A DNA stretch of 63,702 bases, filler included, from Rhizaria sp. SCN 62-66 (lineage: Eukaryota), in the NCBI GenBank assembly GCA_001724265.1. It is 4 parts of 4 records of this genome, joined end to end, with 100 filler letters (N's around TTAATTAATTAA, not from the genome) between each part and the next. Parts side by side here need not be neighbours in the genome. Positions count along the whole stretch, not along the records: positions 51,430 to 63,702 come from MEDY01000535.1; 3 more parts are not named here. One strand, given 5' to 3'. A program made the translations under genes and the position numbers. Positions 4,840 to 63,702 of this stretch are shown here, in pieces. The notes under the pieces were generated by a model. It did not search any database. It had not been told where the DNA came from and worked only from the letters and a program-made list of their open reading frames with translations. Position 1 is the first letter of the stretch; every line of letters starts with the position of its first letter.

Positions 4840-5351
4840 AGCAGCTGCAGCAGCAGCAGCTGCAGGCTACGCAGCCTGGCGTCCCCAGCTACAGCGGCGA
4901 CGGCGATCTAGCGAGCTACGCAGGCGGCCTAACCTCCTACGCGCGCTCCGTTGCGGCAAACAACAACATGAGCGGCAGCATCGTGTACGACAACAGCGCC
5001 TTCAGCACCACGGCGGTTGGGCTCGGCAGCCTCAGCCCTTCGGCCTCGTACAATGCCAACGGCGCAAATGCCAACAACACGGGTAGTAACGGCATTAACA
5101 GCAGCGGTGGAGGCGTGAGTGTGAATGCCAACGCTGTTGGGGCTGTGAACGGCGGTGTGATTAGCAGTGACATTGAGGAGGAGTATTGCTTTGAGCAACA
5201 ACAGTCCTCCCACTCGCCGCCGCACTTGCAGTCACTGATGCAGTCGCAGTTAGCAGTCGCAGATAACGTGGCGCCGGCGATGACTGCGGGCGGCGCGAAT
5301 AGCAGTGAGGTTATTGAGGAGATCCCTACTGCGATTGCCGATGATTATTAA
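1090..5351 (+). CDS. Cyclin-dependent kinase-like (CDKL family) kinase with a ~1,000-aa Q/N/G/A-rich tail; 2 exons, 1356 aa
   Basis: Exons 1090-1702 and 1894-5351 (intron GTACGT...TTTCAG) join PLFP-G-ESDADQ. Motifs GEGTYGVV, VAIKQFKE, VRKTAIREIR, HRDIKPEN, DFGFAR and YTDYVATRWYRAPELLVG (TDY activation loop) are typical of CDKL. Stop TAA. Confidence 0.92.
2367..2627 (+). repeat. CAG/CAA polyglutamine tracts in the CDKL tail (further tracts at about 3111-3165, 3546-3593, 3852-3905 and 4731-4866)
   Basis: Long (CAG)n runs interspersed with CAA, read directly from the sequence. Confidence 0.95.
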
Positions 5352-14919: not shown

Positions 14920-15951
14920 ATGCAAGCTATCATCGATGTCCGTCGCGGTGGCCAGGATGCAGCACAGCTGACTGTGCTTGTGACGAAGGATGGTGCTCTC
15001 TACACTGGCGCAGTTTCGAGTAAGCGTCACGGCGATGGCCGCTGCAAGTTCTCCGACGGCCGCGTGTACGAGGGCTCTTGGGTTGACGACGTGTGTCATG
15101 GCCATGGTAAGATGACATTTCCCTGCGGCAAAGTGTATGAGGGTGAGTGGGCTAACGGCATGCGCAGCTCTGGTAAGATGACCTACGCCAATGGCCCAGT
15201 ATTAGTGTACGACGGCCAATGGGCCAACAACAGTCCGCACGGTATCGGAAAGGTAACTTACGCTGGCGGTTACGTGTATGACGGCGAGTTGGCTCGCGGC
15301 AAGAGGTGCGGTCAAGGCAAGATGACCTTCCCTGATGGTGCGGTCTATTAATATGACGGCGCGTGGGCTGACAGGAGGTGCGGTCAAGGCAAGATGACCT
15401 ACGCCGACGGCGACGTTTACGAAGGCGAGTGGACTGACGGCGAGCATAACGGAGAAGGGACCATGTGGTACTACAACGGCAATGTGTACGAGGGCTCATG
15501 GCGATCCGGGTTGCGCGCGGGCCGGGGTAAGTGTACGTTTGCGAACGGCGGCTACTACAAAGGTCAGTGGGAGGATGATGCGATGTCCGGCAAGGGCAAG
15601 CGCGTATACGGCGATGGTAAGCGCATCTACAAAGGCATGTTCAGGCACGGTAAGCGCAATGGAAGGGGTGTGTGCCACTACGACGCGTCATACAAGTGGA
15701 CGTCGTTTGATGGCGTCTGGATTTCCGACGGGTGGAACGAGGGGAAGATCACGTACAATAATGGCGACACATATAACGGCAAGACTTGCGGCTTTCGGCG
15801 CCATGGAACAGGCACCCATAGGTGGGCCAACGGTGACACATATGAGGGAGAGTGGGTGAAAGACATGCGCGAAGGTCAGGGCACGTGCACTTACAGTGGC
15901 CGTGACATCATCAGTGGCATTTGGAAGGAGGACAAACTTGTGAACGTGTAA
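14920..15951 (+). CDS. MORN-repeat protein interrupted by an in-frame TAA at 15349-15351 (pseudogene, or rescued by a small intron)
   Basis: ORFs 14920-15351 and 15394-15951 are in the same frame. Repeated YxGxWxxGxxxGxGxxxYxxG units run across the TAA (DGAVY*YDGAW). Final stop TAA. Confidence 0.85.
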
Positions 15952-19121: not shown

Positions 19122-19221
19122 NNNNNNNNNNNNNNNNNNNNNNNNNNNNNNNNNNNNNNNNNNNNTTAATTAATTAANNNNNNNNNNNNNNNNNNNNNNN
19201 NNNNNNNNNNNNNNNNNNNNN
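19122..19221. other. Artificial contig spacer (N44-TTAATTAATTAA-N44)
   Basis: Six-frame stop linker flanked by Ns. Confidence 0.99.
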
Positions 19222-24532: not shown

Positions 24533-24566
<34 letters not shown>

Positions 24567-25646
24567 GCGCGCGCCGCTGCCGCTGCTGAGCCGCAGCCGT
24601 CGCCGATGGCCAGCTTTGCGCCCGCGCCCGCGGCCGTGGCCGTCATGACTGACGCAGACGCGGAGGCCGAGGCCGAGGCTGAGGCTGCCGAGGAAGAGCA
24701 GGACCAGGAGCAGATGGTCGACGACGACGACGACGACGACACCGCTGCCGCCGTTTTTGACGCCGAGGCTGAGGCTGAGGCTGAAGTTGAAGCTGAGGCT
24801 GAGACCGAGACTGAGGCTGAGGCTGAGGCCGAAACTGAGGCCGAGAATGAGGCCGAGGTCGCGCCTGTGTTCGACTCCGAGGACGAGGCGACCGAGCACG
24901 AGCACGACGACGAGGCCGGCCAAGCGCAAGAGCGGGAGCAGGAGCGTGAGCAGCGCGACGGCGACGACAACGATGATCACGAGCTTGAGGGTACAGCCGA
25001 GTCTGAGGCCGAGGCCGAGGCTGAGGCCATGTCCGACACCGAGCAGGAGCGCGAGCAGGACGATTCTGCTGATGCTAATGCTGATGTTGATGCTGAAGCT
25101 GATGCTGAAGCTGATGCTGATGCTGATGCTGATGGCGATGCTGATGCAGAGGCTGATGCAGAGGCTGAAGCTGAGGCTGAGGCTGAGGCAGAGGCTGAGG
25201 ATGCTGATGCCGAGGCTGCGGCGAGTTCTGACTACGAGAACGACGGCGACGGCGACGGCGACGGCCAGAACCATGACCAGGCCGGCAACAGCAACAGCAA
25301 CGACCACAACGCGACTGAGCACCAAGAGCAGGAGCAGCAGCAGGATGATGAGGTTGAGGCTGAGGACGACGGTCTACCTTAGGCCGAGGCCGAGGCCGAG
25401 GCCGACGCCGACGCCGACGCTGACGCCGACGCTGACGCCGACGCTGACGCTGACGCTGACGCTGACGCTGACGCTGACGCTGACGCTGACGACGTCCAGG
25501 AGCAGGAACATGAGCAGGACGGTGCTGCAGCTGTTGACGCTGATGCTGATGCCGTGGAGGCCGAGGCTGCGGAGGCCGAGGCTGATGACGAGGAGCAGGA
25601 GCAGGAGCGTGACGACGAACTCTACGTCGACGAGGACGCGGCATAA
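19222..25646 (+). CDS. TPR: Nuclear basket nucleoporin TPR/Mlp1/NUA-like coiled-coil protein, 5' truncated; in-frame TAG at 25380-25382, probable true stop TAA at 25644-25646
   Basis: Exons <19222-21517 and 21674-25646 (intron GTACGG...TTTAG). TPR-family motifs LVLFDSVDELQRRNQQLL, AQANYQRELRQHA, LSFLRRENDV, QITLIRESNVVLRND and WRQRNKHLLEAYQHVDPE, followed by an acidic low-complexity tail. Confidence 0.88.
25383..25490 (+). repeat. GCYGAG/GCYGAC hexamer tandem repeat (Ala-Glu/Ala-Asp) downstream of the TAG
   Basis: gccgag x3, then gccgac/gctgac units, in the same phase and dipeptide style as the repeats at 24763-24845 and 25068-25215 upstream of the TAG. Confidence 0.9.
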
Positions 25647-31914: not shown

Positions 31915-34900
31915 TTAAAAAGCATTGTCAGCAGCAGCGGCGACAATACGCAAAGGCAGCACAAGTGCTGTGGGCAGCACAATCTTATGACCCTGACTGT
32001 GAGTGTCGCTGTTAGAATTGGCAACAGCAGAACCGCTCTCGCACTCTCTCTTAATGCTCTTGCTGTCGCTGTGGTAGTAATTGTGACTCACAGTCTCGGT
32101 CACAACAGCAGTAGCAGCAGAGCCATTACTTTGAGTCACATTCTCTTGCTGCTGTTGCTGCTGCTGCAGCTGCTGGAAGCGCCACCGGAGGCGCACACCA
32201 GACTCGCTGTCACTGCTGCTGCCACAGTCCTGGGAGCCGGGCACAGTGGCCGTGACGGCGACGGTGAGCGCGCTGGCCTCGTCCTCGCTCAGCGGCACGA
32301 GCAGCTGCCACAGCAGCGCGCCATCGCACATGTTGAGCGCGAGGTTGGACACCAGCACGTCTAAGGGTGTACTTACATCAACCGCGGAAAACGCGGTGCC
32401 ATCAAGAGCGAGGCCCTTAGCCGCGGCGTCGCGGAGTAGGTGTTCCTTGGCGGCCGCGATGTAAGGGGCCGCGAAGGGATTCGCAGCGAAGAGGCGTGCA
32501 AACGCAGCGTTGGCCACGACATAGAGACGCGACACAGGCGCCGTAGTAGTGCCGGAGCAAGTAATAGTCAGCTGAGACGCAAGCTCCGGTGACTGTGACG
32601 GCGCCTGCGGCTGACTAAAGGTAAGCGGGAACACGCTAGAATCGGCATCAGTGTTACTGGCATAGTTATTATTGTTGCTTGTTGGGAAGAGAGGCAGGTC
32701 GATGTTGACAACGACCGTGGGCGTCCTCTTGTCGTTGGAGTCTGTCTCGGCCATGAAGCGCTGCAAGTGCGACAGAAGCACGTAAGTGCCTTTGTTCGCA
32801 GAGCTGACACCGAGACTGTGGTTGTGGCTGTGGCCGCGGGCGGCGGCGGGGCTGTCCGAGGAGGCGGCGCGGGACGGCAGCTGGCACTCGAGCTCGCTGT
32901 CAGCGTCCGCGGCCGCGTCGGCAGCATTGCGAACGCGCTTCACAGTGTGACCCGCGCCAGCAGCGCCGCCATCACTGCTCTCTGTCTTGACAACGACAAC
33001 GACCTCGGCCTTCGTGTCGGCGCCGGCGCCGGCGTCGGCGTCAGCCTCGGTCTTGGTATCGGCATTGGCACTGGCACTTGCCGTGTCGCACGCGGGCCGC
33101 TTCACGCCGCGCGCGCAGTTGCCGTGCGAGTTGGCGAGCGCAACGAGGTGGCTGATAAGCAGCGCCTTGCGCAGCACCACGTCCGTGTCCAGGTAGCTGT
33201 TCGCGGCGGCGGGGGACGCAATGCTGCGCGTGTCGCTGCCTGCGCTAGACAGGGGCGACACGGGCAGCGAGCCGCTGCTGTTGACGTCGCTCGCGCTGGG
33301 AACCGGCGAGCGCGAGCGCGGCGAGCGCGCGGGCGAGGCCCTCAGCACCGGCGAGGACTGCTGCGTCAGCAGCGAGTACAGCAGCGCCGCGGCGGCCTGG
33401 CCCCACTGGCGCGCGACCACGCCCGCCGCGTCGCCGCCTTCGTCGCTCTGGCCGGCCGCCTGCGTATGGCCGGTTTGCGCGGGGCTCAATACCGCCTTGG
33501 TGCGCGCGAGCGTCTCGGTGAGCGCGGCGGTGGCCACCTGGCCAAGAGCGCGGCACACCGCGTGGCTCGACGACGCCACCGACAGCCGCGGCGACGCAGA
33601 CCGAGACTGCGCTTGCGACTGTGAGCCCGCGGGGGACTGCGCGCCGCCGCCGGTCAGCTCGGCGGCCGCGGCCGCAGAACGCGGCGAAGGCCACGAGGAG
33701 GGTGAGCCGCTGCCGTTGCCATTGACGGAGATCGGAGCGACCGTCGCTCCCGTGCTCTTGTTCACGACAACCTGCTGCGCCTGCGCCTGCGACTGTGAGA
33801 GCGAGGTGGAAAGCGCGAGCGCGAGGGCGCTCTTCTCGGCCGCGGGCAGCCGGCCCAGCAGTGCCAGCGCCGCGCTCGCCGTCGTGGGCGCCAGCGGGAT
33901 CGTGGGCGACAGCGGCGGCAGGACGGGCAGCATCAGGCCGGGAGCAGGCACACCAGTGGCCGCCGCAGTAGCGGCCGCCACCGCAGCGGGCGAGGCGGCG
34001 GAGGAGGTGACAGAGGGAGTCGAACTCGGAATGCGCACGGAGGCTAAGCCGCTAATGGAGCGGCGCGAAGGCAGTTCGACAGTTGGCATCGGCGCAGCCT
34101 TGTTTGCAACAGCGCTCGCGCTTTCACTGCCGTTCGATTTGACAGCAGCGGCAGCCGCAGCCCCAGGGGCGTTGCTGGCCGAGTCGAGACCGTTGTTCTT
34201 GTGAACGGGGTCCGCGTGGCCGCAGACCCCGCTTTCCTTACAGTCCTTGTCGCAGCCCTCTGCATCGTCGACTTCGCCGTCAACCTCGGCGTCGGCGTCA
34301 GCGTCTTCGTGCTCGTCGTCGTCTTCCTCGTCATCCTCGTACTCTTCGTCGTCGTCCTCGGCCTCGGCATTGACGTCGTCCGTCATCGGCAGCGAAGCCG
34401 CGGCCGCGGCGGCATTCGCGGCGGCGGCAGCAGCAGCGGCAGCGGCGGCGGCCGCGCGTCCCTTGGCGCCGCGGCCGCCGAGCCCTAACAGCTGCTGTTG
34501 CTGCTGATGCTGTTGCTGCAAGAGCTGCTGCTGCTGCACCTGCTGTTGCAGCGCACTATGCGCGTTCGCGTGCCCCGCCTGTCCGTGGCCGTGGCCGTTG
34601 CCGTGGCCGTGCGCGTGGCTGTGCGCGTGGTTGTGGTGGCTGTGGTGGTGGCTGTGGCGGCCGGGCTTCTTGCGGCCGCGGCTCACGGCCGGCGCGTCCA
34701 CGCACAGGTGTGCGCGGCCCGCGTTGGCGCAGCGCGAGCACGGCCGGTGGAAGTCGCACTTGAGCTTGCTGCTGCGGCAGTGGACGCACGCGCGCGACAC
34801 GCGCTCGCTGCTGCGCCCGCCGTTGCCGCCGCCCGCGGCCGCGGCGGCCGCGGAGCCTGCCGCCGCGGCGGCCGCGTCGCCGGCAGAGACTGCGGCGGCA

Positions 34901-36132
34901 GCGTTGGGGTGCATGTGGCCGTGGCCGTGGCCATGGCTGTGGACGAGGGCGTTGTAGTCCAGGTGACTGTGGGTGTGCAAATGGCCGTGGGCATGGTGAC
35001 CGTGAGCAGCGAAGTGACTGTGAGCGCTGGGGTGAAATGAGCCGTTGACAAACTGCTGCACCTGCGCCTGTGCCTGCGCTTGAGCCTGCTGTTGCTGCTG
35101 AAGCTGTTGCTGAGCAGCCGCCACGGCCGCCGCGGCAAAGAGACCGTGGGCAGGAGCGTGACCGTGGGCGGCGGCGGCGCGCGCGCCCGTGCTGGCGATG
35201 TTCGCGGCCGCGCTCGCGGGCAGAAATCGCGCCGTGCTATACGGCTGCTGCTGTTGTTGCTGCTGCTGACGGGCAGCGGAGCGTGACGTGTGACCGTGTA
35301 CGTTACCGTGACCGAGACTGTGACCGTGCGCAGCGGCAGCAGCGGCCAGCGCGTTCGACGGCGGACTGTTGCCGCCGGTGCTAGAACCCCCACGCGCCGC
35401 AGCGGCCGCGAGCGGCAGCGCTGCCGGGGGCGGCGTGTTGCCGTTGCTATTGGCGCTGCTGAGGGCGGACCCGGGACTGTTGGCCGCGGCCTCGGCCTCG
35501 GAGAGCTGCTTCTGCTGAGCGGACTGAATCACCTGCAACAGCTGCAACAGCTGCTGCTGTTGCTGTTGTTGCTGCTGGTGCTGCTGGTGCTGCTGGCTCA
35601 TCATGCTGGACCCTGTAACGGCTGCGGCGGCTGCTGCAGCGGCTGCAGCGGCGGCGGGCGCGGGCGCTGCCGAGCCCGGGGCGGCGACAGACCGCAGCAG
35701 ACTGCCGAGAGCGGAGTTGTTGAGCGCTGCCGCGGCAGCGGAGGCAGCGGCTGCAGTTGCAGTCGCGTTCGATGCGCCAGTCGCCGTCGTCACCGGCGTC
35801 GCAGATTGGGCAGAGGGGCCCACCGGACGCGCGCCGGACGCAGCAGCGGCGCCGGGAGCCGAAAAGGGGTTCTGGGTAAGGCGAGATGCCGCAACAAAAT
35901 GCGTGTTGAGATATGGTGCTGCCTGAGAACCTGAAGAAGGAACGGATGCAGCGACAGCGGCCGCTGCGGCGGAGCCGACAGAGGCCGAACTCGGGCCGGG
36001 GAAGGAGGCCGCGGAGGGGGCCCCTGGAATGGTAAGGTTCCCGCCTTGCGGCGCCCACATTGAACCACCAGGCGCCGCAGATAGAGGTTTTGGGGCGGTA
36101 ACTCCGGGATAGAAGCGCGGATGTGAGATCAT
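31915..36132 (-). CDS. Zn(II)2Cys6 (GAL4-type) zinc-cluster transcription factor with a possible C-terminal PAS-like region, 1405 aa
   Basis: RACVHCRSSKLKCDFHRPCSRCANAGRAHLCVD (C-x2-C-x6-C-x5-C-x2-C-x8-C) at about 34696-34791; RTPTVVVN...LYVVANAAFARLF near the C-terminus. Stop TAA. Confidence 0.88.
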   Translation of the reverse strand: MISHPRFYPGVTAPKPLSAAPGGSMWAPQGGNLTIPGAPSAASFPGPSSASVGSAAAAAVAASVPSSGSQAAPYLNTHFVAASRLTQNPFSAPGAAAASGARPVGPSAQSATPVTTATGASNATATAAAASAAAAALNNSALGSLLRSVAAPGSAAPAPAAAAAAAAAAAAVTGSSMMSQQHQQHQQQQQQQQQLLQLLQVIQSAQQKQLSEAEAAANSPGSALSSANSNGNTPPPAALPLAAAAARGGSSTGGNSPPSNALAAAAAAHGHSLGHGNVHGHTSRSAARQQQQQQQQPYSTARFLPASAAANIASTGARAAAAHGHAPAHGLFAAAAVAAAQQQLQQQQQAQAQAQAQVQQFVNGSFHPSAHSHFAAHGHHAHGHLHTHSHLDYNALVHSHGHGHGHMHPNAAAAVSAGDAAAAAAGSAAAAAAGGGNGGRSSERVSRACVHCRSSKLKCDFHRPCSRCANAGRAHLCVDAPAVSRGRKKPGRHSHHHSHHNHAHSHAHGHGNGHGHGQAGHANAHSALQQQVQQQQLLQQQHQQQQQLLGLGGRGAKGRAAAAAAAAAAAAANAAAAAASLPMTDDVNAEAEDDDEEYEDDEEDDDEHEDADADAEVDGEVDDAEGCDKDCKESGVCGHADPVHKNNGLDSASNAPGAAAAAAVKSNGSESASAVANKAAPMPTVELPSRRSISGLASVRIPSSTPSVTSSAASPAAVAAATAAATGVPAPGLMLPVLPPLSPTIPLAPTTASAALALLGRLPAAEKSALALALSTSLSQSQAQAQQVVVNKSTGATVAPISVNGNGSGSPSSWPSPRSAAAAAELTGGGAQSPAGSQSQAQSRSASPRLSVASSSHAVCRALGQVATAALTETLARTKAVLSPAQTGHTQAAGQSDEGGDAAGVVARQWGQAAAALLYSLLTQQSSPVLRASPARSPRSRSPVPSASDVNSSGSLPVSPLSSAGSDTRSIASPAAANSYLDTDVVLRKALLISHLVALANSHGNCARGVKRPACDTASASANADTKTEADADAGAGADTKAEVVVVVKTESSDGGAAGAGHTVKRVRNAADAAADADSELECQLPSRAASSDSPAAARGHSHNHSLGVSSANKGTYVLLSHLQRFMAETDSNDKRTPTVVVNIDLPLFPTSNNNNYASNTDADSSVFPLTFSQPQAPSQSPELASQLTITCSGTTTAPVSRLYVVANAAFARLFAANPFAAPYIAAAKEHLLRDAAAKGLALDGTAFSAVDVSTPLDVLVSNLALNMCDGALLWQLLVPLSEDEASALTVAVTATVPGSQDCGSSSDSESGVRLRWRFQQLQQQQQQQENVTQSNGSAATAVVTETVSHNYYHSDSKSIKRECESGSAVANSNSDTHSQGHKIVLPTALVLPLRIVAAAADNAF

Positions 36133-36533
36133 TGGGCGAGGTGCGAGTGGGGGGAGGAGATGATGCTATCGATGGTGTGCTTCAGGTAGGGCTACTAACA
36201 AGGGAGATAAAATGCATCATAGTGAGCGAATAGATCACAAAACAAATACCTTTTTCAGTAAAAAGATTGCAGGCGACAGTTGATTTTCGTATTATTAGAG
36301 CACATTAAGCGGTGTACATGCAGTGCACAAAGGCCGATTAATAAGCTTTCGGCTCGTCTTTCTGCCGAGTTGAGAATTTCAAAAATGGTGTGCACATGCG
36401 TAACTACGCATTCGGAATCTGAAATAATTTTCTAGCCAAATATGCTAAATATAAAAAAACCTGGCGAGCGTAGGCCAGTCAAACACATCGGTGATGCAGC
36501 TTGCTAGCGCTAAAAAACTGAACATGTACCTTT

Positions 36534-37697: not shown

Positions 37698-37797
37698 NNN
37701 NNNNNNNNNNNNNNNNNNNNNNNNNNNNNNNNNNNNNNNNNTTAATTAATTAANNNNNNNNNNNNNNNNNNNNNNNNNNNNNNNNNNNNNNNNNNNN
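37698..37797. other. Artificial contig spacer
   Basis: N44-TTAATTAATTAA-N44. Confidence 0.99.
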
Positions 37798-47100: not shown

Positions 47101-48398
47101 ACGTTCCCCGCGCTCAGCGCCGCGTCCGTGGGCACCGCGTTCCTCGCCGCGCCCCAGTCCGTGCCTGCGTTTGCGGCCGCGGGCGACGTGCTTGTCGGCA
47201 CCCTCCGCGTCGTCGGCAAGAACTGCGAGGCCGCGCAGTCCACCAACGGCGGCCCCGCGGCCGAGACCGTCGGCGCCGTGCCTGTGCGCGCGCTCGTCAC
47301 CCGCGGCGGCGACTCCAAGGGCATCGAGGCCGAGACCAAGGCCGCGCCGAAGCTCTCCGCCTGCGCCGCCGCGCGCAAGGCTGTCTCCGCGACCGAGCCT
47401 GCTGCCGAGAAGGACCCCAAGGACTCCGCCAAGGATGCCCCCAAGGATGCCGCCAAGGATGCCAAGGCCGACGAGGTTAAGCCTGTCGACGCTGCCGAGG
47501 CCCAGCTCGACATGACCCTGAAGTATCTCTCTGGCACTGTCTCCAAGCCCACTGCTGCTTGGGCCATCGCCACGGCCCTGCCCCCACTACTCGCGACGCC
47601 GGCCAACGCGACCCACATCGCGCTCAACCAGGTATGTTCTCGAGCAAGATAAAACGCGGTTTGAAACACACTTTTTCCATTGCTACTACGTGTTTAAATC
47701 TCTTTTTTTCCTTACATTATTTCCTTTTCATTTTCCCCTGCTTTGTCATTGTTTAGGCCAACTTCAAGTGCATCACTGCTGTGACCCCTGCTGCTGAGCT
47801 CTACGCCGCTCTGTCCCCTGCTGTCGAGGCCTTTGTCAAGGCCATCGACGTGACTGCGCTTGCGCAGTACTTCGGCACTCAACGCGACGCCGCTGACCTC
47901 AGCGACGACGAGAAGGCCAAGGATAAGAAGTTCAAGGAGCAGCGTGCCGCCGTTGCTGACGCCTACGCTCAGCTCACTTCTGCCGCGATTGCCGCCGACC
48001 TTGCCGCTGTGCAGGCCAAGAGCAGCGGCGGCGCCGACGAGAGCGCGACGCTGGCCGCCGTCAAGGCTGCGTTGGCGCAGCTCCGCGCGTACGCGCAAGC
48101 GAGCGAGGCGGGCGTCAAGAGCTCGGCCGCGCTCTACGTCCACGCGCGTGAGGGCAAGAACGGCAAGGTGCTCGAGACCGTGGCGACGGGCAGCTCCGAC
48201 GCGCAGGACGCCGCCATCCTCGCCGCCGTGCTTGCCGTCGTCACCTCGGGCGCCGTGGGCAGCTCCGAGTCCAAGCAGCGTCTGTTTGCGCAGATCACCG
48301 CCGCCGTCGCCAAGAGCCTCGGTTGGGAGTACCTCGCCGGCGTCGTCGAGCGCAAGCTCATCACGGCCTACCCCTACGTGCGTGAGCGCTACTACTAA
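44119..48398 (+). CDS. TPP2: Tripeptidyl-peptidase II (subtilisin S8 family); 2 exons, 1384 aa
   Basis: Exons 44119-47631 and 47757-48398. Catalytic triad motifs AIFDTG, GSHGTHVAGI and MNGTSMSSP, plus TPPII-specific DSTGSGDVD, VKIGD..LGTMETG, VNMSYGE and SSAGNAGP. Stop TAA. Confidence 0.95.
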
Positions 48399-51329: not shown

Positions 51330-51429
51330 NNNNNNNNNNNNNNNNNNNNNNNNNNNNNNNNNNNNNNNNNNNNTTAATTAATTAANNNNNNNNNNNNNNN
51401 NNNNNNNNNNNNNNNNNNNNNNNNNNNNN
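51330..51429. other. Artificial contig spacer
   Basis: N44-TTAATTAATTAA-N44. Confidence 0.99.
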
Positions 51430-51525
51430 ATAAACCACGTAGTTTGATAACTTCTACGAAAGTGCGCCAAAGTCGCAAAAAAAGCGCGAATTCGCGTTTT
51501 TTAGTTGACGCTACATAGGGGTTAC
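51430..51525. repeat. Putative repeat or transposon terminus at a contig start, related to 37601-37697
   Basis: See the partner feature; includes the palindrome CGCGAATTCGCG at 51485-51496. Confidence 0.4.
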
Positions 51526-52264
51526 ATAGCCGAGCCGAAACAGGAGAGAGGTAAGGGGGGCCGTGCCGCTTTCTTTTGTGCCGTCGTTCCGCCGTTAAAC
51601 TCCGCGACTGCGTTCGGTATTCATCGTCGACAATTCATTATACTGGTATTTTTGAGGCACTCTTCACCTTTGTTGTTGTCGTTGTGCTGTGATGACGACA
51701 TGATGGTTGTAGGTTCTGTCGGTCTCGCACCTCTTCTCTCCGCGACGTACAATACTTTCGGCCGTAAATACGCTCTCCATAAGCTCTAAATTTCGAACTT
51801 GACACTTTTGTTTTGATTTTCACATAGTAATATATATTCCCACACTTTTGAAAAGTGCTGCACTATCATATTATGATCATACGCGTCAATCTTTCATCCT
51901 TTCCTATCTTCTTGCCCTTCTCTGACAGTCACGTCGCTCTCTGATCCCTGCCTCTAGAGTTGATCAACAAGAGCGTCGACACTCAGGGACACTCCATTCC
52001 GCAACTTTGTGATCTTTGTTAGTTTCCCACCGAACATCTCATCAGCTCGACAACAGCAAAACACATAACACCTTTGAAGAAGAGCGTTTTGCTCGCTTTG
52101 CTCACTTTCACTCAGCACACGCATTTGCTCAAGCTAGCGCGATGACTCTGACGGGCAGCTCTCTCTGTGCACCGTCGGGATGCTATCTGGTTATGGGAGC
52201 ATCTGCACCATTACACGTTCCCCACGCTTATCGCACCCGCAGCAACAGCAGCAGGAACTGGAGC

Positions 52265-55200
52265 ATGCTTTCATTCCTTCGGCCCCTCGCCCTGGCCATC
52301 TTGTTCCTCGCCTCACTCACGACTGCGATCAACACGTTCACGATGTCTAGTGGGGCCGCCGGCTTCTACGCCGGCTCCTCCGTGACGTTTCGCGGTTATT
52401 TGCAGACGTTGAGCTCTGGTGATACGAGCCTCCAGCTTGCTGCCAAGGATTCTGGATCAAACGTCGTTATTGCCACGAACTCGATGCGCAACTGCCGCGT
52501 CGAAACGACCGGCGTCGCTGTCAGCATCGTGAATATTTCCCTTGTCACCGATGGTGTTGCTTTGAATCTGAATGCAAAAGCCAACGTGACCAACGTCGTG
52601 GTGTCTTGCCAGATCACACTGCAGCCGACGCTGTCCGCAAGCTATAATCTCGTCGTAAACGTTGTCACCATCTTTGGCGGCGCCCCGATAGGCACCACCA
52701 TGGTCTCATTTGACGTGATCGGCCCGCATTTTCTGGGTGCCGCACTAGGCACCACTGCGTACTATGCGAACCAATGGCTCGGCGGCTCAGACTTCATCAA
52801 CATCCCGTTTTTATACTCAGGGAGTGTGAGGCGCTCGGCGACCTTGTTGGGCACGTCGTACTTCCAGTTGAAGATGAGCGCGAGCTCCACATTTCTGTTC
52901 AACGATACGAACATCCAGTGCTATCTTGACTATCGGCCTCTGATCAACAATGTCATCATGCTGGGTCTCCCCAGTATCCTGGATGCTGGACTCAGTGCTC
53001 AAATGTACATCCCAATCGATCATTTCCCCAGCGACCCCCCTGATCTGTACCCCGGCACGTTCATCTGCTCGGTGCCGTGGCGCTCGACGTCGGAGACCAC
53101 GGTGCCGAACACTGCGTTTACGCTGACGGCCGGGATCAACTTCAGCGGCTACAATGCCGTGCTACCCACGCTAACTCTCGACACCGTTGCGTCGGACACC
53201 AAGGACTGGCAAGTGTTGTCCAATTTCTTTTCGCCGTCCTGGACCATTACAAGCTACGGCATCCAGGGCGCCGGCAGCGGATACATCCAACTGGGCCTAA
53301 AGCGCATCAGCAGAAGCGAGATGTACCGCGGCGCCTAGGGCACCTTCTGCACCGTCAGTGCGCGACCTGCCAGCGCCGAAGCGGTCGGCGACGGCGGGTC
53401 CGTCACCGCGTCCTTGGTGCCGCCCGTCGCGCCCTCGATGATCATGTCCATGGGCTACTGTCACATTCCAATCGAGAGCATCCACATCCACGGCGTCGGC
53501 TTCACCTCCGCTATCGAGATCGTCGTGTCGATGTACTTCGCGTCGCTGCCCGCTGAGCTCTCGGGCAACACCACGCTAGGTTTTATCGACGGGTGGCTCT
53601 CGCGAACTTACACGCTCAACGTGGTACGCTCTATTTACACGGTGTATCTCCTCACTTGAACAAGAAAGAGTTGTCAGACTGTCTTTGGACACTCTTCCAG
53701 CACCCACCCAGACAATATCGTACCTTATTTCACCTCTATTTTCTCATGTCTTTTCTGTATATGTCTCATTATGACTTGTCTCAAACCATTGCCTATTAAT
53801 GTGTTGCACTTGCATTTACATCATGCAACAAACGCATCTTTCAACCCCAGCCGCTTACCGTGAAAGCGTTAGAAACGTCTACGGCCGTCGCCTCCATCTC
53901 GTCCTTCACGCCCCGCGGCTTCTACCAGCCGCACCGTGCGTCGTACCCGGGGGCCGCTGCGGTGCCGCTCGGCAGTCCGCTCCAGGACTGGTACTCGCTG
54001 CCGCCGCAGCTGCCGCTGTCCGTCTCATCCGCGCGCCCGACCCCACGCCCGCGCCCGCGCTATCTGCAGGCCACGGCGTCGGCCGCTGCCGCGGGCCCCA
54101 AGCTCGAGAACCTGTCCCCGTCGACAACAGGCCAGTACTCGTTCTTTTTTGGTGGCATCGCACTGCAGACGTACCCGTTCGCGTCGCCCGCCTTGTACCC
54201 ATGGGCGGAACCCGCGCTGCTGTCGGACCTGTGGATGGTCGACGCGCTGGCCAACACCACGACGCTGCTGCACGGCGACCCCGCGCAGACGGGCCTGCCT
54301 GCCGTCATCGGTACGCTGACTCCAGGTGTGTACGCGTCGACACTGCGGCCCGCGGCGCGGCACTCGGCCTCGCTTGCATACGACGCGTTCACGCGCACGA
54401 TTTGGCTTTTTGGCGGTGCGTATTACCCCATCATTGCCAATAACGCGGACAAACAGAAGTTTTTTGACGACTTGTGGTCGTTCAGTCTGGACAAGCGGCA
54501 GTGGGCGTATTGGCGCGGCATCGCGGAGCCGGTGCCGAGGCCCGAGATCTCACAGATCCTGAGCAACACAGCGCCGCCCCTGGCTACGGCCGCGGCGGCG
54601 ATGGCCGCGCACGAAGGGTATATTGTCATTTATGGTGGTACGTTCACTTGTTGCAACAAAGCTACAACAAAACCAAGCTGCATACCGATGACCCCAATTA
54701 GATTCCGGAATTATAATATTATAATATTATTGTTCGATCACTTCCGTTTCCCGCGTTATAATAGAAAAAATATCTCATGTCATATCCTTATTTTTTTTGT
54801 GTGTGGGTTGTGGTTGAACATCCTGTTTCGCCTACTTGCGCACTCTACAGGTTACATCTTGACATCCAAGCTTAACGCGTTGGGCTACAACCCCGTCATC
54901 GAGACCCCCGACGTCTACCTGGCCGACAACACCAATGGCACCAACATCACTTGGAAGCGCGTCTACGACATCATGACGTACACGGACGGCACGCACGCGT
55001 ACCCCGGCGTGGCCAACACCGAGCCCTGCGCGCGCGCCTACGCCGCGCTGGTGTGGGAGACGCATAATGCGGCCCCGGTCACTACGCTCGTCATGTACGG
55101 CGGCACGCTCTCGGCGCTGCTGCCGTCCGCGCCCTTGGTGACTGCGAGCACGACACTGCACACCGCGCCCTCGCCCGAGAACGACTCGGGCGTGCTGGCG

Positions 55201-58200
55201 GGGCTCTGGCGGCTCACCATCACGCTGCCCGGTACGGCTGTGTGGGAGCGCCTCGACGCGCTGCCGCTGGCGCCGACCGCGGCCGAGCGCGGGCAGCCGC
55301 GCCTGGTGTTCCCGTCCACGTCCAGCCTCGTATCTGCGCCCGGCGGCCGCGTGTTCCACGCCATGAACATCGCGGCCAACGGAGACATCTTCCTCTACGG
55401 CGGCCGTGGCCACGGCGCCGGCGCGTACGTGCGCCCCGATGCCGCGGAGACGATGGAGGTCATGCTCAACGCGCAGCCCGCCGCGGCGCCGTTCACGCTG
55501 CCGCTAGCGGGCCGGTTCGACATCTCGTCTGTGACGGAGCGCGGCGCGGTGTCGCTGCACGCGTTCCTGTACACGGTGGACGAGCTCGCGGCCGCGGGGC
55601 TGCCGGAGAAGCTGAACCTGCAGTCGCTCGACGTCATGGTGAAGCTGAATGAAGAGTCGCAGCTTGGCCTGACTGGAACATGGCAACCGGCCAGTCGTTT
55701 CCGTGTCCGGACGTGTCTGGCAGCGACAAGTCTGAATAATTTCTCCATTATGTCCGCTTCTTATCTTGATATCGCTGAGACCGCTATGCTTTCTCAGCCC
55801 GGCTTGCTGATCGATCCTGCTAAGTGGGCTCCGAAAACGTACATGGCCATCAACACTCCGTACATGAAGGATATGAATCTTGACGCTGCGTCTGTCATCG
55901 CGACGCATTCAAGTACCAACGTTATTTTCTTCATGTCTATTGAGTATGTCTTCGAAGGCTTTCCGACCGCTTCACAGTCAGTGGGTTTCGGACTTGAAAT
56001 GCGAGATAGCTCGGACACTCGCTCCATGTCCATCATCAAGGACGCAGTCTCCGTTAGTGGCCAGGGTTACCTCAATTTCGAAGTCTACACCGCGCGGCCC
56101 GTGCTGCTACTGCGGTCCCCGCTGCCCAGCCACCCGCTGACGCAGCCCCCCGTGACGATCTCGCGCCTCGCCGCGCCGCAGCTCGACGACCTGTGGCAGT
56201 TCTCGCGCGCAACCAACACCTGGCGTCTGCTGCGTGGCTTCTCGGGCCCCATCACGCGCAGCGGCTCCGCTGTCAACCGCGTCGGCTCGCCGGCGATCCC
56301 GCTGGCGATCAATGACTCCTTCTGGCCCGGCGCGCGCCTCGGCGCCACGCTGTCGATCCCGACGTCGAGCACGAAGCAGGCGCAGGTCGCGTCCGACACG
56401 TCGCTCTTCCTCCGCGGCGGCTGGACCGCGGGCTCGACCCCCGCGGCGGAGCGGGCCTTCTTCGCTGACCCCGCCGTGGAGCGCCACCTCGAGGACTGCG
56501 AGCTGCTCGCTGTGCACGACGACCTGTGGAGCATCGATATCGTCACAAACGCTGCGAACATCACGTGCATCGACAGTACGGCGTACGATAACACTGTCTG
56601 CCATCCGTCGACGGCCAACAACCTGACCGCGCCCTTCACCCCGTGGCTGCCGCAGGGCGACGTCGTCTACGGCGAAGAAGCCCGCGCCGCGCTGTCCTTC
56701 TCGAACGCTAACACGTGTCCGTCAGGGTTCGGCGCCAACTACTGCAACAACAAGGGTACCTGCGTCGCCGGCGGCGGCTCCGCCTTCTGCCACTGCAACA
56801 GCTACACACAGGGCGCGCAGTGCACGAGCGGCAACATCGCTGAGGTCAAAGCCAAGTTCCAGCTCAGCCACGGCTCCGTGCTGCTCAAGGGCGCGACCAG
56901 TCCGACCGTGCTGCCTTTCGCCGCCGTCGCTCACCGGCCCGGCACCGGCGAGGTCTACAGCTTCGGCGGCGCCGTGATCAACTCGTCGCTCGCCACTGCG
57001 TTCGCTAGCGCGGCCTTTACGCGCGTTGATCTCGTCGCCAACACTGTGACGGAGATCCCGCGCACGGCGGGCCACGCCGAGTCGCACGAGTACTCGCAGC
57101 TTCTGGTCGGCTCGTTTTTTTCCGGTGAGGTGTATGTGTCGCCTACGGCACCGCCGCCGTCCGTCGAGTCTCACGCTTGGTTTTCGCCAGATGGAGCCAA
57201 TATGTATTTGTACGCAGAAAGCTTCGTTGCACCGCCCGGTCTGTGGGTGTACACTGTTGCTCTTAAGGTATGCAATCGACTCACATTTTTTTCACTTTGA
57301 CCACACATGTTTATTGATCTCCATACTATACTATCGATTGTATGTCCCACTTTTCTTTTGTTTTAATGTGATTACAACTCACTTTCATTCTGCTTCTTAA
57401 TTATTATTATTTTCATTTTGTTTCGTATCACAGTCCTGGGAGACGGCAGGTTTCGACCATCTCAGCTACAACTCATCGTATCCGTTTGGTTTCGAGTATT
57501 ATTCTGGCGTTTCTGGCGATTTCGGCCAAAAAGGCCCCTCTTATCATCCTAGCGCACGCCAGGGCTTCGCCAAGGCGTCCTTCTCTCGCTCAACTTCTGG
57601 TGATAACGACTCGGTGTTCTGCATGTATTCTGGAGCAAAGATGTATTGGTCTGGGAGTTTCATTGAATCGTATAACACTGATCTTTGGTGTCTTTACACA
57701 AAGACGAATACCTCGTCCGGAGTTCATGACGCACAGTACGTTGATTTTGTAAAATAATGAAACAGTGTGAGCTCTTAATGTAATATCTCAAAGCACCGTG
57801 TCAAATTTCGCAATCCACTCACTAATCTTTACCTCTCTGATTCCTCTTCTGTATCGTGTTACATAGATGGGCGCTCATGTCTGGCTCCTTCAACTTGACC
57901 GCTAATGATCACCTGCCTTCTGCCTCTGCCCCCGGCGCCTTCAGTAGTTCTAACAGCCCCGGCGCCCGCCTCGGTGCCAGCATGACGTTTTCTCACGACG
58001 GCCGCTACCTCTACCTCTTCGGTGGCTCTCTTCGCGTCCAGCCAGGCAGCGCGATCCCGCAGCCCGCCCTCATGGCCGACCTGTGGGTGTTCTCTTTCTC
58101 CAAGATGCAGTGGGCGTACCTCTCCGGCCCGCTCACCTGGGCTGTGCAGGGCAGCGCGCACGCGCGCAGCACCGTCGCCACAGCCGGCGCGCCGTCGCGG

Positions 58201-61200
58201 CTGCAGGCGCCCGGCGCGCGCGCCTATGCCAGTATGACGGCCGACGCCGACGGGCTCGTGTATGTCGGCTACGGCATGCGGCTGCCGCTGACCACAGGGA
58301 CGACGATCAACGATGGGACCAGCGCGGACTCGCTCGACGAGTCGGCTCTCGAGGGCACGGTGTTCGCTGTCTACGCGGAGCAGCTGCACAATAGCACGTG
58401 GCTTCCGTCGGCCACGTCCATCACGGCGCTAGTCACTGCGCCGACGTCGCACAGCATCGGCAGCGAGGTCGCGGCCTGGGCGTGGTTGGTCAACCCGAAC
58501 ACCGTCGTCATCACCCCGTACCGCAGCTTCACGTGGGCGTCCACCAGCGACGACGCGCGCCTTGGCGCCTCGTTCCTCATGCTGCCCAACTCTCTTGGCA
58601 CCGCCAGCGAGACGTTCGCCAGCCCCTCCGCAGTCCTCCTGCGCACGGGCGGCCTGACGTACGCCACGGGCGCGATTATCGTTGGTTTGACGCCGGTGTA
58701 CCCGTTCTACTCGCACGGGAAGCTGACGTCCGGCGCCGACCAGTCAGCGCTCGTGGCGCTGACGACTCCTTGCGCTCGCAACCCCTGCGTCAACGGCGGC
58801 GTGTGCGGCATCCAGCCGGTATCTCAAACGCCGGTGACGCTCTTGGTCGGTCTGACCTCAAAGAGCTACCGCTGCACGTGCCCCGCCGGGTACTTTGGCG
58901 AGCACTGCCAGACGGCGCGCGCCCAGTTCGCCCCGCCCACGGCCCCGGCGGTGAAGGCCCTCAAGTGCGTCGCCACGGGTACCAATCAGACCAACTCGCT
59001 CTCGGCGCCCTGCGACTGCGGCACCGTGCGCTCGTCTGGCACGCTCTGCTCGCCGCTGACCGTGCGCGCGCTGGTGGACAACCCGTACGGGTCGGCGCAG
59101 CCGGGCACGGTGCCGCGCATATTCGCCGCCAGCGCCACGACCCACAGTCTCTCGGTCACGGCGGCCGCGACGCTGGGGCTGCCCGCGGGCTCGACCGTGA
59201 CCTTCGTCGCCGGCGGCGCGAGCAACGTGAACATGCTCGGCATGACGGCCATCGTTGTCGCCAACTCGCTCTCCGCGCGCACCAGCGTCACGCTCGTCGC
59301 GGAGAAGACCACGGATGCGTCCACGCCAGTGCTGGAGACCAACTTTACTGCCGGCACGGTGGCCTACACGGGGCAGCACATGGGCGCCTCGCTGGTATAC
59401 TTCCCGCAGGGCAACTGCTTGTTCCTGTTCGGTGGCATCGTCAGCAACGGCGGCACAAACGTACGTACCTTTATATCATATTTTTCGCGTCATATGTTCT
59501 CCTGGAATGCATGTGTTGACTTAGAACATTGTACCATGTATAATTTATATGTATTGTCACAGCCAATGATATAGTCGATGATTGTTCAAATACTAACCCC
59601 TCTTTCATTCATCAATTGTTCGCTCCCATTGCTGCATAAACAATTTTTAATCCCTTCTCAATGACATGGGGGCAGCGAGAGTACTACGAGCGTCTCTGGC
59701 GCATCCCTGTCACGGCATCGTCGCTCAACATCCCGCCCGAGCTCGTCCCTGGCCGCGGCACAGACGCGAAGTTGAACCCGATCATCTCTGACCCCGTCCA
59801 AATTGTCTCCGTGGGCACGGTGGGCCACCAACGCCGCGCATCGGCCACGGTCTACCCGGCCGGCTTCCCCGGCTCCCGTGCCTTCCACAGCTCCGTGATT
59901 GTCACGCTGGGCGGCGGCGCCGAGAGCTGGGTTTACACCTACGGCGGCCTCATTCCCTCGTCCACCACTGACCTGGCCTTCCGCGGCGATCTGTGGCGCT
60001 ACCGGGCCACCGTCTCAGGCACAGTCACCTGGCAGTATGTCGGCTGCTCGACGGGTCTCAACTTCGTCCCGGATACGGCTGTCACGGTTGGCAGCGCGGT
60101 GCCGATGGCTGACTACTGCCCGTCGGGCCGCGCGCGCGCGTCACTCGTGGCGGTTGGCGAGACGCTTGTTCTCAGCGGCGGCGTCGGTTTCTTCGGCGCA
60201 CTCGACGACATTTGGAGCTTCAGTCTGCTGACGGAGATGTGGACTCTGATCGCCGGCAAGAGCCGCAAGTTCGCGCCTTTGACGTATGACCTCGCCACTC
60301 CCCCCGTCTTCACTGGTTCGGTGATCACGCGCACGATGGGCTCGCGTTACGACCACAGCTGCGACGTCACACCCGGCAGCACCACGGTGTACTGCTTCGG
60401 CGGCATGACGGCGCGCGGCGTGTACGTCGACATCTACCGGGCTGTGGCACCCGCTGTGCTGTCGAACGCGTACTTTTACAACGCGACGCAGCCGACGCAG
60501 CTGGCGTACCCGTTCCGCGACATCAAGGGCGACGGCACGACGGGCAGCAAGGTGGCGAGCTATCTGGCGAGGGCGCTGCTCTAGCAGGCGGGGCTGCTGA
60601 CGTACATGTCCGTGCGCGCCGTCACGTTCTACCTTACACGGCCCGTGGACGCGTCTGTGTCCGTGTTCGTTAAGCTCAGGGTCGTTCCCGTGACCGCGAC
60701 GCCGACAGGGAAGCTGACGGACACATCGACTGGCACGCTGATGGTCAAAACCCTGAAGTACGCTGACTTTGGCACAACGGGCACCGAGTTCACGATTGTC
60801 TTAGGCGCCGCTGTCACACTCTTACCCTCAGCTGTCGGTGTAATCATCGTCCTCGAAGTCGTCGTGATGAACAAAGACGATTTGCCAGGGTTTGGCAGCG
60901 GTGGGCGCGTTGAGGAGTCGCTTGCCTACGGTGTTTCGTCCGCCGCCGTCGGGGCCGAGGTATTCACTCTTTTTAGCGCGAGCGCGAATCGGACCAAAAC
61001 TACACACTTCACAACCACTTCCGATAGTGGGGACGTGTATGAGACCTATTTGATTCCGCAAATGCGTTTCCGTGCTTCCCCCGCGGCCGGCGGCCTTACC
61101 ATGGGCCACGCCGCGTCGTCGGACATGTTCAGCATCGACACGGCCAATGGCGAGATTGCACCCCTCTTCGCGCCGCCTGACGGCGCTGCCCCGTCCGCGG

Positions 61201-63702
61201 CCGTACTCACCATGGCTATCTTCGACGGCGGGGCCGACCCCGGTCTGCGCAGCGACAACGTCATCGAGGACGCAGAGCTCGGCTACGGCACTGTCTGGAC
61301 CAAGACCGTTTCCGGCGATAGCGATGAGACGGCGCCGTCGACCTATGGCACGCTGGCGCTCACGCTGCCCGCGCTGGCGGCGCACACATTCGCGCTGGTG
61401 AACGACCCCACTTCGCAGTACTCGATGGACGGAACCCCCGCGTTTTCGGTCTACGGCGGCCGGTGGGTGCAGGAGACGCCTTACGCGACCAACTCGACCC
61501 CAACTGTGGACCAGATCTCCGGGTTCAAAACATTTTTAGCGACGACGGCTTCGACAGCTGCTCCGGAATCGAAGTACGTGCTAACTTTGAACAACAGAAA
61601 TATGCATATTTTACGTGACTGACTATCTCCAACTTTTTATTTGTACACATGTATCACTCATACTCACCCTTCAACTTCACTTTTGCTGCTTGCTCTGGAT
61701 CCGTTTCACCGTGTTCGTTTTACGCTACAGCACATACGCGTTCAGGAACCTGTTCAACTACCACGGTGGCAGCGTCCTGCCTCCCTACACCCAGCTGGTC
61801 ACGCCCTCAGTATCGTATCCGCGCCCCCTGTCCGCGAGCTTCACGACTGCGATGAACGAAGTGCGGGTCACCTTCGACTTGGCGACGCAACAGCCGCGCA
61901 ACACGACATCCGCGTCGACCGAAAACTGCGCCGTCGTGCTCGACCAAACTACGCTGTTGCCATTCGGGGATGGGGCTGTCTGCGCATGGATTTCGCCCAC
62001 AGGTACGTTAATACTCAGTGCTACTCTGTTCAGCGTTGGGATTATGAATCAACCAACGACCCGGCCACGCCCCTCGACTCGGCTCGAAATCTGTGCACTC
62101 TCATTTCCCTTGTCTTCAATCTCACGCCTATTTATTTCGTTATTCTTTCTTGCTCTTTGTTCCCTCATTTTTTGCCGACACGCACAGTCTTCAGCATGGT
62201 ACTCGGCGTATCCTTCACGGTCCGCGTCAACTTCCAACTCGCCTTTCTCGGCAACGTAGTCCGGCGCGCCGGCACCGAGGGTGCCGCTTACCTTCCGTTT
62301 ACTCTGCTTCCTCTCACCGCGCCCGCAATCAGCCCTCTCGCCCCGGTGCCCGTCATCACAACGCAAACCACGGTGGGGCCCTGCGATGGCCTCACGCTGT
62401 CGACCGCAGCCAGCACCAACAACGGTGGCCTCGCCTTCATTTATGTGTGGTCAGTCACGGGCAATACGTCACAGACCACTGCGTTTGCGACTTATTTGAA
62501 TGATACTTTCGGCGAATACAACGCGGGCGCGGTGTTCCGTGCGACTAAGTCCCCGATGTACGCGCCACTGCTCACGCTCACTCCCGCCGTGCTGGCCTCG
62601 ATCGTGGGCGACGGCCAGACCAGCACTTTCACGCTGAATCTGACGACTTGGTATGGTACTTCGCAGCAAACGAGCGTTTCCGTGACACGGGCCGCTGCAC
62701 CGCTGCCGCAAATTGCCATTGCGGGCAGCAAGTCCGTCGCCACATTGCCGCCGCGCAACGTGCTTGTAAATGCGCTGATTTCGCGTGTTGGTGTGTGCGA
62801 TACCACGACGGTGCGCGCGAATATCACGTACACGTGGGAGCAGGTGTTCGTGCCTGCAGATAGTAACATCACTGTCGAGGCCACGGGTGACTTAGCGTCA
62901 CTGCGCATCCGCGCCTATGCGATGAAGGCGCGTGCAGAGCCGTACCAGTTTAAGGTCTCTGTGTTCGACAACGCCAACGGCAACGAGTACAACAACTCTG
63001 ACATCGTGTACGTGACCGTGAGCGCATCACCGTTGCGTGCATCGTTGACTGGCGGTGACCGTGTTCACACGACGCAACTACCCCTCACTCTCTCTGCTGC
63101 AGCCTCTCGCGACCCCGACGTTAACCCAGCAACCGACGCACCGTCTGCGGGCTTAACCTTTGTGTGGACGTGCGTGAACAACCTAACACCCACTGAACTT
63201 TGTTTCGGTGTCAACACAGCTATGCTCTTGGCGAATCTTACTTCAGCGACACCCAGCGTACTCACTGTGCCTGCGGAAAGGTTGACTTTCAACGTACCCG
63301 AAGGGATGACTTCACTTCGTTTCTCTGTTACCGTGGGCAAGGAGGCTGGCCGCCCCACTGTTAGCGCAGTGACTGTTGTAACCCTTGTGCCTATTCGCCC
63401 TCAGTATGCGCTAGCAGTCGCCCCGCCAGACCGAGCGCAGTTGCTCCAGCAGAACCCCGTGGTACTGACTGCATACGTGTCGCGCGTAGACATCGGTCCC
63501 AGCACCGCCGCGAATGAAACGCGCAAACCAATCGCATTTTGGTCGTGCGACACGCGCAATGCGAACCTGGACGAGCCCGGACTGGTGTTGCACCGCAGCG
63601 CGACGCCCGCGAGCGACGGCTCGGGCCGCATGGTGCACACGCTTACCCTCGCCGGCGAGAAGCTCCTGCCCGGCGTAGTCTACACGATGCGTCTCTCGCT
63701 GT
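52265..63702 (+). CDS. Giant secreted or surface protein: signal peptide, kelch-type repeats, EGF-like modules and a REJ (polycystin-1-like) region; about 3,380 codons visible, 3' truncated, two in-frame TAG codons
   Basis: Exons 52265-53623, 53851-54637, 54851-57267, 57434-57735, 57867-59460, 59676-61573, 61731-62002 and 62188->63702, all GT-AG and phase-consistent. Signal MLSFLRPLALAILFLASLTTA; PGARxGA...LFGG...DLW blades; EGF modules CNNKGTC..CHC and CARNPCVNGGVC...CTCPAGYFGEHC; REJ-like VGPCDGLTLS..S..NGG...YVWSV and SPLRASLTGGDR...SRDPD...LTFVWTC. TAG at 53336 and 60582. Confidence 0.85.

Follow-up and report, generated by a model that had tools for sequence, protein, structure and literature searches.

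The question raised by this locus is whether a TAG codon lying in the open frame of a giant gene is translated or ends the protein. The window, which is the whole stretch of 63,702 nucleotides (nt) analysed from Rhizaria sp. SCN 62-66 (GCA_001724265.1), was found to contain a partial gene (52265..63702, + strand, running off the window) that encodes a signal peptide, Kelch repeats, EGF and REJ domains in eight exons and that is interrupted by TAG at two places. A third TAG was found in the frame of a coiled-coil gene, and the three codons, all on the + strand, are referred to here as TAG #1 (25380..25382), TAG #2 (53336..53338) and TAG #3 (60582..60584). The reading put forward, with a confidence slightly short of even, is that TAG is translated in this organism, by reassignment or by efficient suppression, with UAA as the terminator. 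The choice between recoding and decay is a close one and is left undecided. The counts of terminators, codons and tRNA genes given below refer to this one 64-kb window.

TAG #3 (context CTC TAG CAG GCG) was found in frame in the exon 59676..61573 (+ strand), which encodes the last Kelch blades followed by a predicted beta-sandwich region and lies between an acceptor AG (59674-59675) and a donor GTACGT (61574). As the exon's codon 303, TAG #3 comes after 302 codons and ahead of about 330 more that reach the donor, and it was found to be the sole stop of its frame from 59640 to 61619; the in-frame TAG and the open frame up to a canonical donor, both claimed in an earlier note on this DNA, were thereby confirmed. 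Two metagenome open reading frames (ORFs), P0003 and P0004, were found to be 56-57% identical over 85-94% of the exon and to contain no stop at this position. All six homologues (6/6) were ungapped at the TAG #3 column and contained the sense residues R, T, T, L, D and N, and the column was found to be flanked by a conserved Leu and a conserved Gly-Leu. A conserved motif spans TAG #3 as judged from these alignments. The earlier note had said the same of the motif on the strength of an internal repeat, by aligning it to an earlier unit at about 55550-55640. That repeat was not recovered: BLASTP of 60300-61573 against 55000-57270 gave a best E of 0.42, for a match elsewhere, in a Kelch piece, and hhalign of the exon profile against 54901-57270 returned a 25-column Kelch motif only, and it is the homologues on other contigs that show the motif. 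The residue at TAG #3 is not inferable from the alignment, because the column is variable.

The Pfam Kelch matches in the exon were found upstream of TAG #3 only, with none downstream. The AF2 model of 60225-61571 had a mean predicted local distance difference test (pLDDT) score of 43, with residues of about 105-285 at 50-83, and the fold search returned only generic beta-sandwich, lectin or carbohydrate-binding-module-like matches, the best of which (Z 8.5, root-mean-square deviation 3.8 over 137 residues) lies in the common range. The model weakly suggests that TAG #3 would be placed in a turn between the first two strands of the beta-sandwich, after the Kelch blades. Downstream of TAG #3, the identity to the long homologues P0010/P0011 was found to be 26.6/31.5% for the window, 26.6/31.1% for P0003 and 26.9/33.1% for P0004. 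Where the other four sequences show no variation in a column, the window kept 49/51 such columns upstream and 32/37 downstream, and P0003 and P0004 each kept 32/34 of the invariant downstream columns. These comparisons with the outgroups give no sign of long-term relaxation or acceleration downstream of TAG #3.

The gene that carries this exon was found to encode an extracellular protein of the Kelch/EGF/REJ type, with all three Pfam domains above their curated cut-offs, namely REJ at 71.5 bits (E 6.9e-20; cut-off 25), Kelch_6 at 29.9-32 bits (cut-off 25.3) and EGF at 25 bits (cut-off 21.5). Four long homologues found by representative search (P0010 of 3754 amino acids (aa), P0011 of 3391 aa, P0012 and P0014) were colinear in tblastn with the eight exons, without frameshift. 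The exons so obtained lie approximately at 52265-53623, 53851-54564, 54850-57267, 57433-57735, 57867-59460, 59676-61573, 61746-62037 and 62178 to the window end, all on the + strand. The GT..AG ends were checked for the introns 53624-53850, 57268-57432, 59461-59675 and 61574-61745 (+ strand), which are 165-227 nt long with the donors GTACGT, GTACGC or GTATGC, and the three further introns were placed approximately only; of the seven intact introns that had been claimed, four are secured in this way. The claim of two TAG codons (53336 and 60582) with no TAA, no TGA and no frameshift in the coding frames was confirmed, and the roughly 3,000 codons (about 3,000) past the first of the two contain no TAA, TGA or frameshift. 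In database entries the gene is split into separate ORFs of 357, 307 and 246 aa. The C-terminal part of the protein lies outside the window. The REJ, Kelch and EGF domains and the signal peptide are common to this protein, to REJ-domain receptors of the PKD1 / sea-urchin REJ type and to attractin-like Kelch/EGF proteins, whereas here several Kelch propellers and beta-sandwich inserts precede the REJ domain. Relatives with that propeller/insert/REJ architecture were found only among metagenome-derived proteins.

TAG #2 (context GCC TAG GGC) was found at codon 358 of the giant gene, in the first coding exon (52265..53623, + strand), followed by 95 further open codons up to the donor GTACGC at 53624. 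The column was found to contain Pro in 4/4 homologues (P0008, P0009, P0010 and P0014), within a conserved YRG-x-P-G motif. In-frame UAG was thus found at ungapped sense columns twice in one gene, in 6/6 homologues at TAG #3 and in 4/4 at TAG #2. A Pro codon is turned into TAG by two base changes, and TAG #2 is for that reason hard to explain by one recent hit. The codon was also found to lie within the 6-bp palindrome CCTAGG.

TAG #1 was found at the end of a coiled-coil, TPR/MLP1-like ORF (21606-25379, + strand; TPR_MLP1_2 Pfam match E 9e-6, under the curated cut-off), where, close to the gene end, it stands in place of GAG within an acidic repeat of the form (GAG GCC)n. It is followed by an extension (25383..25646, + strand) of 87 in-frame codons of acidic repeats up to a TAA (25644-25646), past which the sequence becomes AT-rich. 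Coding scores were computed for all 283 stops flanked on each side by 40 open codons, and TAG #1 was found to score highest on both sides. The other high-scoring stops were rejected, those at 38871, 25376 (− strand) and 17611 as antisense shadows and those at 882, 20221 (− strand) and 47754 as lying in non-coding frames.

The gene ends examined, a small sample, were found to be uniform. All twelve ORF-terminal stops (12/12) were TAA, though the G+C content at third codon positions (GC3) of the coding sequence is about 0.8; they lie at 5349, 8533, 15949, 31291, 47650 and 48396 on the + strand and at 9143, 16412, 31917, 38635, 41299 and 49166 on the − strand, and the stop after the TAG #1 extension is TAA too. 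TGA was the terminator in 0/12, and no unambiguous TAG terminator was found among the ends examined. By our own arithmetic, 12/12 gives a 95% lower bound of about 0.78 for the use of TAA. The first in-frame stops within introns were TGA (four) and TAG (two), so that AT-rich flanks do not account for the unbroken series of TAA. Only two of the twelve gene ends are confirmed by homology, that of the Rpt6-like gene, where the alignment runs to the last residue of both sequences, and that of eIF2-gamma, where it runs to residue 466 of the 472-residue chain. The coiled-coil gene ends at TAG 25380, or at TAA 25644 if the TAG is read through. An ORF without Met (47757-48395, + strand) was found downstream of the TPPII ORF, separated from it by AT-rich sequence of about 100 bases. 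This ORF may be the last TPPII exon, which would make TAA 47650 intronic and would assign 47650 and 48396 to one gene.

TAG #3 is a real feature of the DNA that goes beyond chance, and it does not stem from a single assembly. DNA contigs of the runs X1 (59367-61479) and X3 (59367-61307, from another study) contained no other letters against the window, and L001, a Joint Genome Institute (JGI) metagenome contig, was 100% identical over 58369-61293, TAG #3 included. The ORF P0005 (307 aa), which ends exactly at TAG #3, was found on seven contigs, and the ORF P0007, which begins at the signal-peptide Met and ends at TAG #2, was found on six. P0006, the ORF of a variant strain (99% identical, two residue changes), starts at the first ATG past TAG #3. 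No uninterrupted near-identical ORF was returned by a search over the length range of 363-1155 aa. The strain of a 2025 study, X4, has no contig over TAG #3 (its contigs end at 60516). Near-identical DNA was found in bioreactor, wastewater and activated-sludge metagenomes of several studies. The metagenome scan matched only L001, which is the same sequence, and L002, a relative whose roughly 509 codons (about 509) are free of in-frame stops and which does not extend to the TAG #3 column; no relatives were found in two scans of genome contigs and one of viral contigs. At the RNA level, a contig of the polyA metatranscriptome run X6 (60442-60692) was found to cross TAG #3 with no gaps and with two other letters at unlisted places, and another X6 contig retains the intron 57268-57432; parts without X6 cover, such as 51500-53941, are uninformative on RNA.

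On the reading that UAG is translated, TAG #3 would be a sense codon of a functional exon, and its translation would give the full-length Kelch/EGF/REJ protein. The likeliest mechanism would be that UAG is no longer an efficient terminator in this protist, either through an early, low-density stop-to-sense reassignment of UAG or through efficient suppression by a tRNA whose anticodon is CUA, while UAA would be the working terminator. Ribosomal readthrough, the inserted residue and a cognate tRNA or an altered eRF1 are parts of this scheme that we infer only. The reading is supported by the ungapped sense residues and conserved flanks at TAG #3 (6/6), by the Pro at TAG #2 (4/4), by TAG #1 standing for GAG with acidic repeats continuing in frame to a TAA, by the lack of frameshift, TAA or TGA in the giant gene past its first TAG and of acceleration against the outgroups, by the TAA at all gene ends examined, by the precedent of published UAG-only codes, and by the presence of both stops of the giant gene in every assembly examined (6-7 contigs). 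A narrower form of it, which we consider unlikely, is that the organism, an uncultured and GC-rich protist, stands at an early stage of codon capture, with UAG cleared from the gene ends and UAA as the sole working terminator; a tRNA(CUA) would then read the few UAG codons that reappear within long genes under weak constraint. At its boldest, the scheme would have the internal UAA of a MORN-repeat gene (15349) read through as well, with termination set by where the codon lies in the mRNA. A relative of the sainouroid Rhizaria, a group for which one code with UAG as Leu has been described, would be in keeping with the habitat and with the UAA-only ends.

Several results weigh against the translation of UAG. 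The density amounts to three TAG in 13,647 coding codons, which is 25-60x under the known cases, and no in-frame TAG was found in the Rpt6-like, eIF2-gamma, TPPII and cathepsin-B-like genes of the window; UAG codons spread in number over many genes, housekeeping genes included, were not found in this one 64-kb stretch. The UAG columns do not agree on one amino acid, since TAG #2 falls on an invariant Pro, the repeat register at TAG #1 suggests a Glu-like residue and the column of TAG #3 is variable. The base at +4 was found to be G, G and C for the three TAGs, with the leaky context (C) at TAG #3 only, and no tRNA genes were found within the window. With codons used as they are here, 66-69% of nonsense point mutations arising at random would give TAG, and a TAG-only outcome under decay has a chance of about 0.45 for two sites and of about 30% for three; the earlier note had taken two TAGs without TAA or TGA as favouring recoding, and the counts hold while the argument from them has little weight. 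Between the window and the X4/X6 strain, three nonsynonymous exonic changes and one synonymous change were found over 56934-58020, and this ratio hints at weak constraint, the counts being tiny and from one fully listed contig. The X6 run retains an intron, and spliced, edited or mature mRNA is therefore not demonstrated by its contig over TAG #3.

To these is added the in-frame TAA mentioned above (15349..15351, + strand; context GTC TAT TAA TAT GAC), which was found in the MORN-repeat gene 14920-15948, flanked by MORN repeats (Pfam E 1e-26 and 3.6e-34 for the two sides) and followed by an open frame with six further MORN repeats up to the TAA at 15949. It looks like a 6-nt insertion and was seen in the window sequence alone; either the MORN gene is broken or the internal UAA is read through. 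This TAA is beyond the reach of a TAG reassignment, and the window would contain at least one apparently broken gene, which also speaks against recoding. The in-frame stops in the 13,647 codons counted as coding were TAG (three), TAA (one) and TGA (none).

A genuine premature stop is a serious possibility, though one that we hold at clearly less than even confidence. The giant gene would then be a young pseudogene or a truncated allele with recent nonsense mutations at 53336 and 60582, a copy in a fast-evolving, mosaic, multi-copy surface-protein family, and the coiled-coil gene would now simply end at TAG 25380, a GAG of its acidic tail having changed to TAG. TAG is the stop to be expected from 66-69% of nonsense point mutations, and TAG #2 removes a Pro that is invariant in 4/4 homologues, as an unselected mutation would; the same Pro would have required two base changes. 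The in-frame stops are confined to repetitive or fast-evolving genes, with an independent TAA in the MORN gene, of the four exonic differences between strains that could be placed three are nonsynonymous, and the density of in-frame TAG is far under that of the reassignments described in excerpts of PMC5304391. Relatives with 47-62% identity were found in like samples (P0003, P0004, P0008, P0009 and L002), and X4 was found to differ at 84/1873 and 30/413 letters, yet at 0-7 letters per contig elsewhere, which suggests a mosaic family. Against decay, no frameshift, TAA or TGA was found in some 3,000 codons downstream of the first stop, and all four checked introns keep their splice sites, the only further lesion being the second TAG; no acceleration was seen against the outgroups, and an intact allele was not found in the ORF searches, while the stops occur on 6-7 contigs. 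Truncating changes would be needed in 2-3 of about 13 genes of one 64-kb stretch, and the TAA at 12/12 gene ends at a GC3 of about 0.8 would be left unexplained. Nonsense alleles in large surface-protein families place stops anywhere, invariant sites included, in fast-evolving genes with mosaic strain divergence, and these properties are common to the gene described here. Pseudogene copies of that kind usually also gain frameshifts and broken splice sites, and the present gene is unlike them in having neither lesion in about 3,000 codons.

The removal of the stop at the RNA level, with UAG edited to UGG by adenosine-to-inosine (A-to-I) editing or otherwise altered in the mRNA, is considered very unlikely. 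It would suit a giant gene that is interrupted solely by UAG-type stops, and local folding predicts a hairpin loop of 6 nt around the A of TAG #3 and a loop of 3 nt made up of TAG #2; fungal editing favours hairpin loops and U at -1 according to excerpts of PMC11156358, PMC10776026 and PMC4817773. The window also encodes a Zn2Cys6 domain of the fungal type, and the X6 RNA contig has its two unlisted differences near TAG #3. In excerpts of the same three reports, editing in Fusarium graminearum corrects premature stops in 71 pseudogenes, and the gene described here is like those targets, from which full-length proteins are made all the same, in looking pseudogenic through in-frame UAG. It is unlike them in that the orthologues there contain Trp, which was found in 0/10 homologue residues at TAG #2 and TAG #3 although restorative editing usually restores the ancestral residue, and in that the hairpin signal is not above chance, the folds not exceeding those of shuffled sequences in stability (z +1.59 and +0.33). 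Such editing is known only from the sexual stages of filamentous ascomycetes, and nothing puts this organism there. The splicing of a 33-nt in-frame micro-intron (60552-60584, GTGGCG...CTAG), which has GT and AG ends and a length that is a multiple of three, was rejected, since the 11 residues to be deleted are kept in 6/6 homologues, several of them conserved, and it is exceedingly improbable. The earlier note had already pointed to its non-consensus donor and to the loss of part of the motif. Its 33 nt compare with 165-227 nt and its donor GTGGCG with GTACGT, GTACGC or GTATGC in the checked introns, TAG #2 would be left unexplained, and the X6 contig 60442-60692 runs through it continuously, a weak point in that the same run retains a real intron. 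A base-call or assembly error, in favour of which nothing was found, has a practically negligible probability, because the sequence is identical in X1 (depth of about 36), X3 and L001 and the stop-ended ORF occurs on seven contigs, and the base call on which the earlier note relied is right. An intron and an error, even taken together, are highly improbable.

The translation of UAG can be compared with the known codes. In excerpts of PMC5304391, the rhizarian exLh is described with UAG as Leu and with gene ends of UAA (56) and UGA (15), and Iotanema spirale with UAG as Gln and with gene ends of UAA (104) and UGA (15); in-frame UAG in these UAG-only codes was counted 384 times over 71 genes and 204 times over 126 genes. 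The present window resembles them, as they appear in those excerpts, in having UAG at sense positions of the homologues and UAA dominant, with no unambiguous UAG terminator among the gene ends examined. It is unlike them in that UAG there is frequent, occurs in housekeeping genes and is aligned with one amino acid, and in that UGA terminators here are 0/12. The same excerpts describe the related amoeba Guttulinopsis as using UAA almost exclusively with no reassignment, and Rosculus and Guttulinopsis, relatives of that group, are recorded in wastewater plants in an excerpt of PMC8827150. UAG reassignments are described for phyllopharyngean ciliates (excerpts of PMC11687900), and UAA is the only terminator in Blastocrithidia nonstop (excerpts of PMC12152300 and PMC12153298). 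Common to these and to the reading proposed here is the freeing of UAG from termination, which has happened several independent times; in the ciliates and Blastocrithidia, so far as these excerpts go, in-frame stops are abundant, whereas the exons here are GC-rich, with spliceosomal introns and no in-frame TGA.

If UAG is translated, the organism would add one more nuclear reassignment of UAG alone, independent of the others and in a lineage with introns and GC-rich DNA, and the density of 25-60x under the known cases would represent a rarely observed transitional state, such as the codon-capture and ambiguous-intermediate models predict. This organism occurs commonly in several data sets from wastewater, and gene calls under the standard code would then cut its largest genes into pieces. 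If the stops are nonsense alleles, the gene would be an ordinary young pseudogene in a surface-protein family.

The strain differences were found to be unevenly placed. The X4 sequence differs at 84 letters over 51500-53384, with an in-frame 12-nt deletion at 52357, and at 30 of 413 letters over 55773-56185. An X6 contig was found to be 99.7% identical over 61089-61480, followed by letters that encode the P0003 peptide and not that of the window, and the X1 contig breaks at 61451-61479, beside this switch. The switch at 61480 points to a hypervariable patch, to gene conversion between family members or to a chimeric contig.

The window as a whole was found to be eukaryotic, with GC-rich exons (GC3 of about 0.8) and AT-rich introns of the GT..AG type. 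No Rfam families were found within it. The taxonomic search with TPPII returned 'Eukaryota' only, and the PDB matches of the Rpt6-like protein were uninformative on affinity. A 1416-aa ORF on the − strand (31918-36165) was found to contain a binuclear cluster domain of the fungal Zn2Cys6 type (E 1.5e-6), which is a possible hint to the affinities of the organism. The N runs at 19122-19221, 37698-37797 and 51330-51429 were found to consist of paired 44-N runs with 12 bases between them, and one such pair lies inside a long ORF on the − strand (16413-21155).

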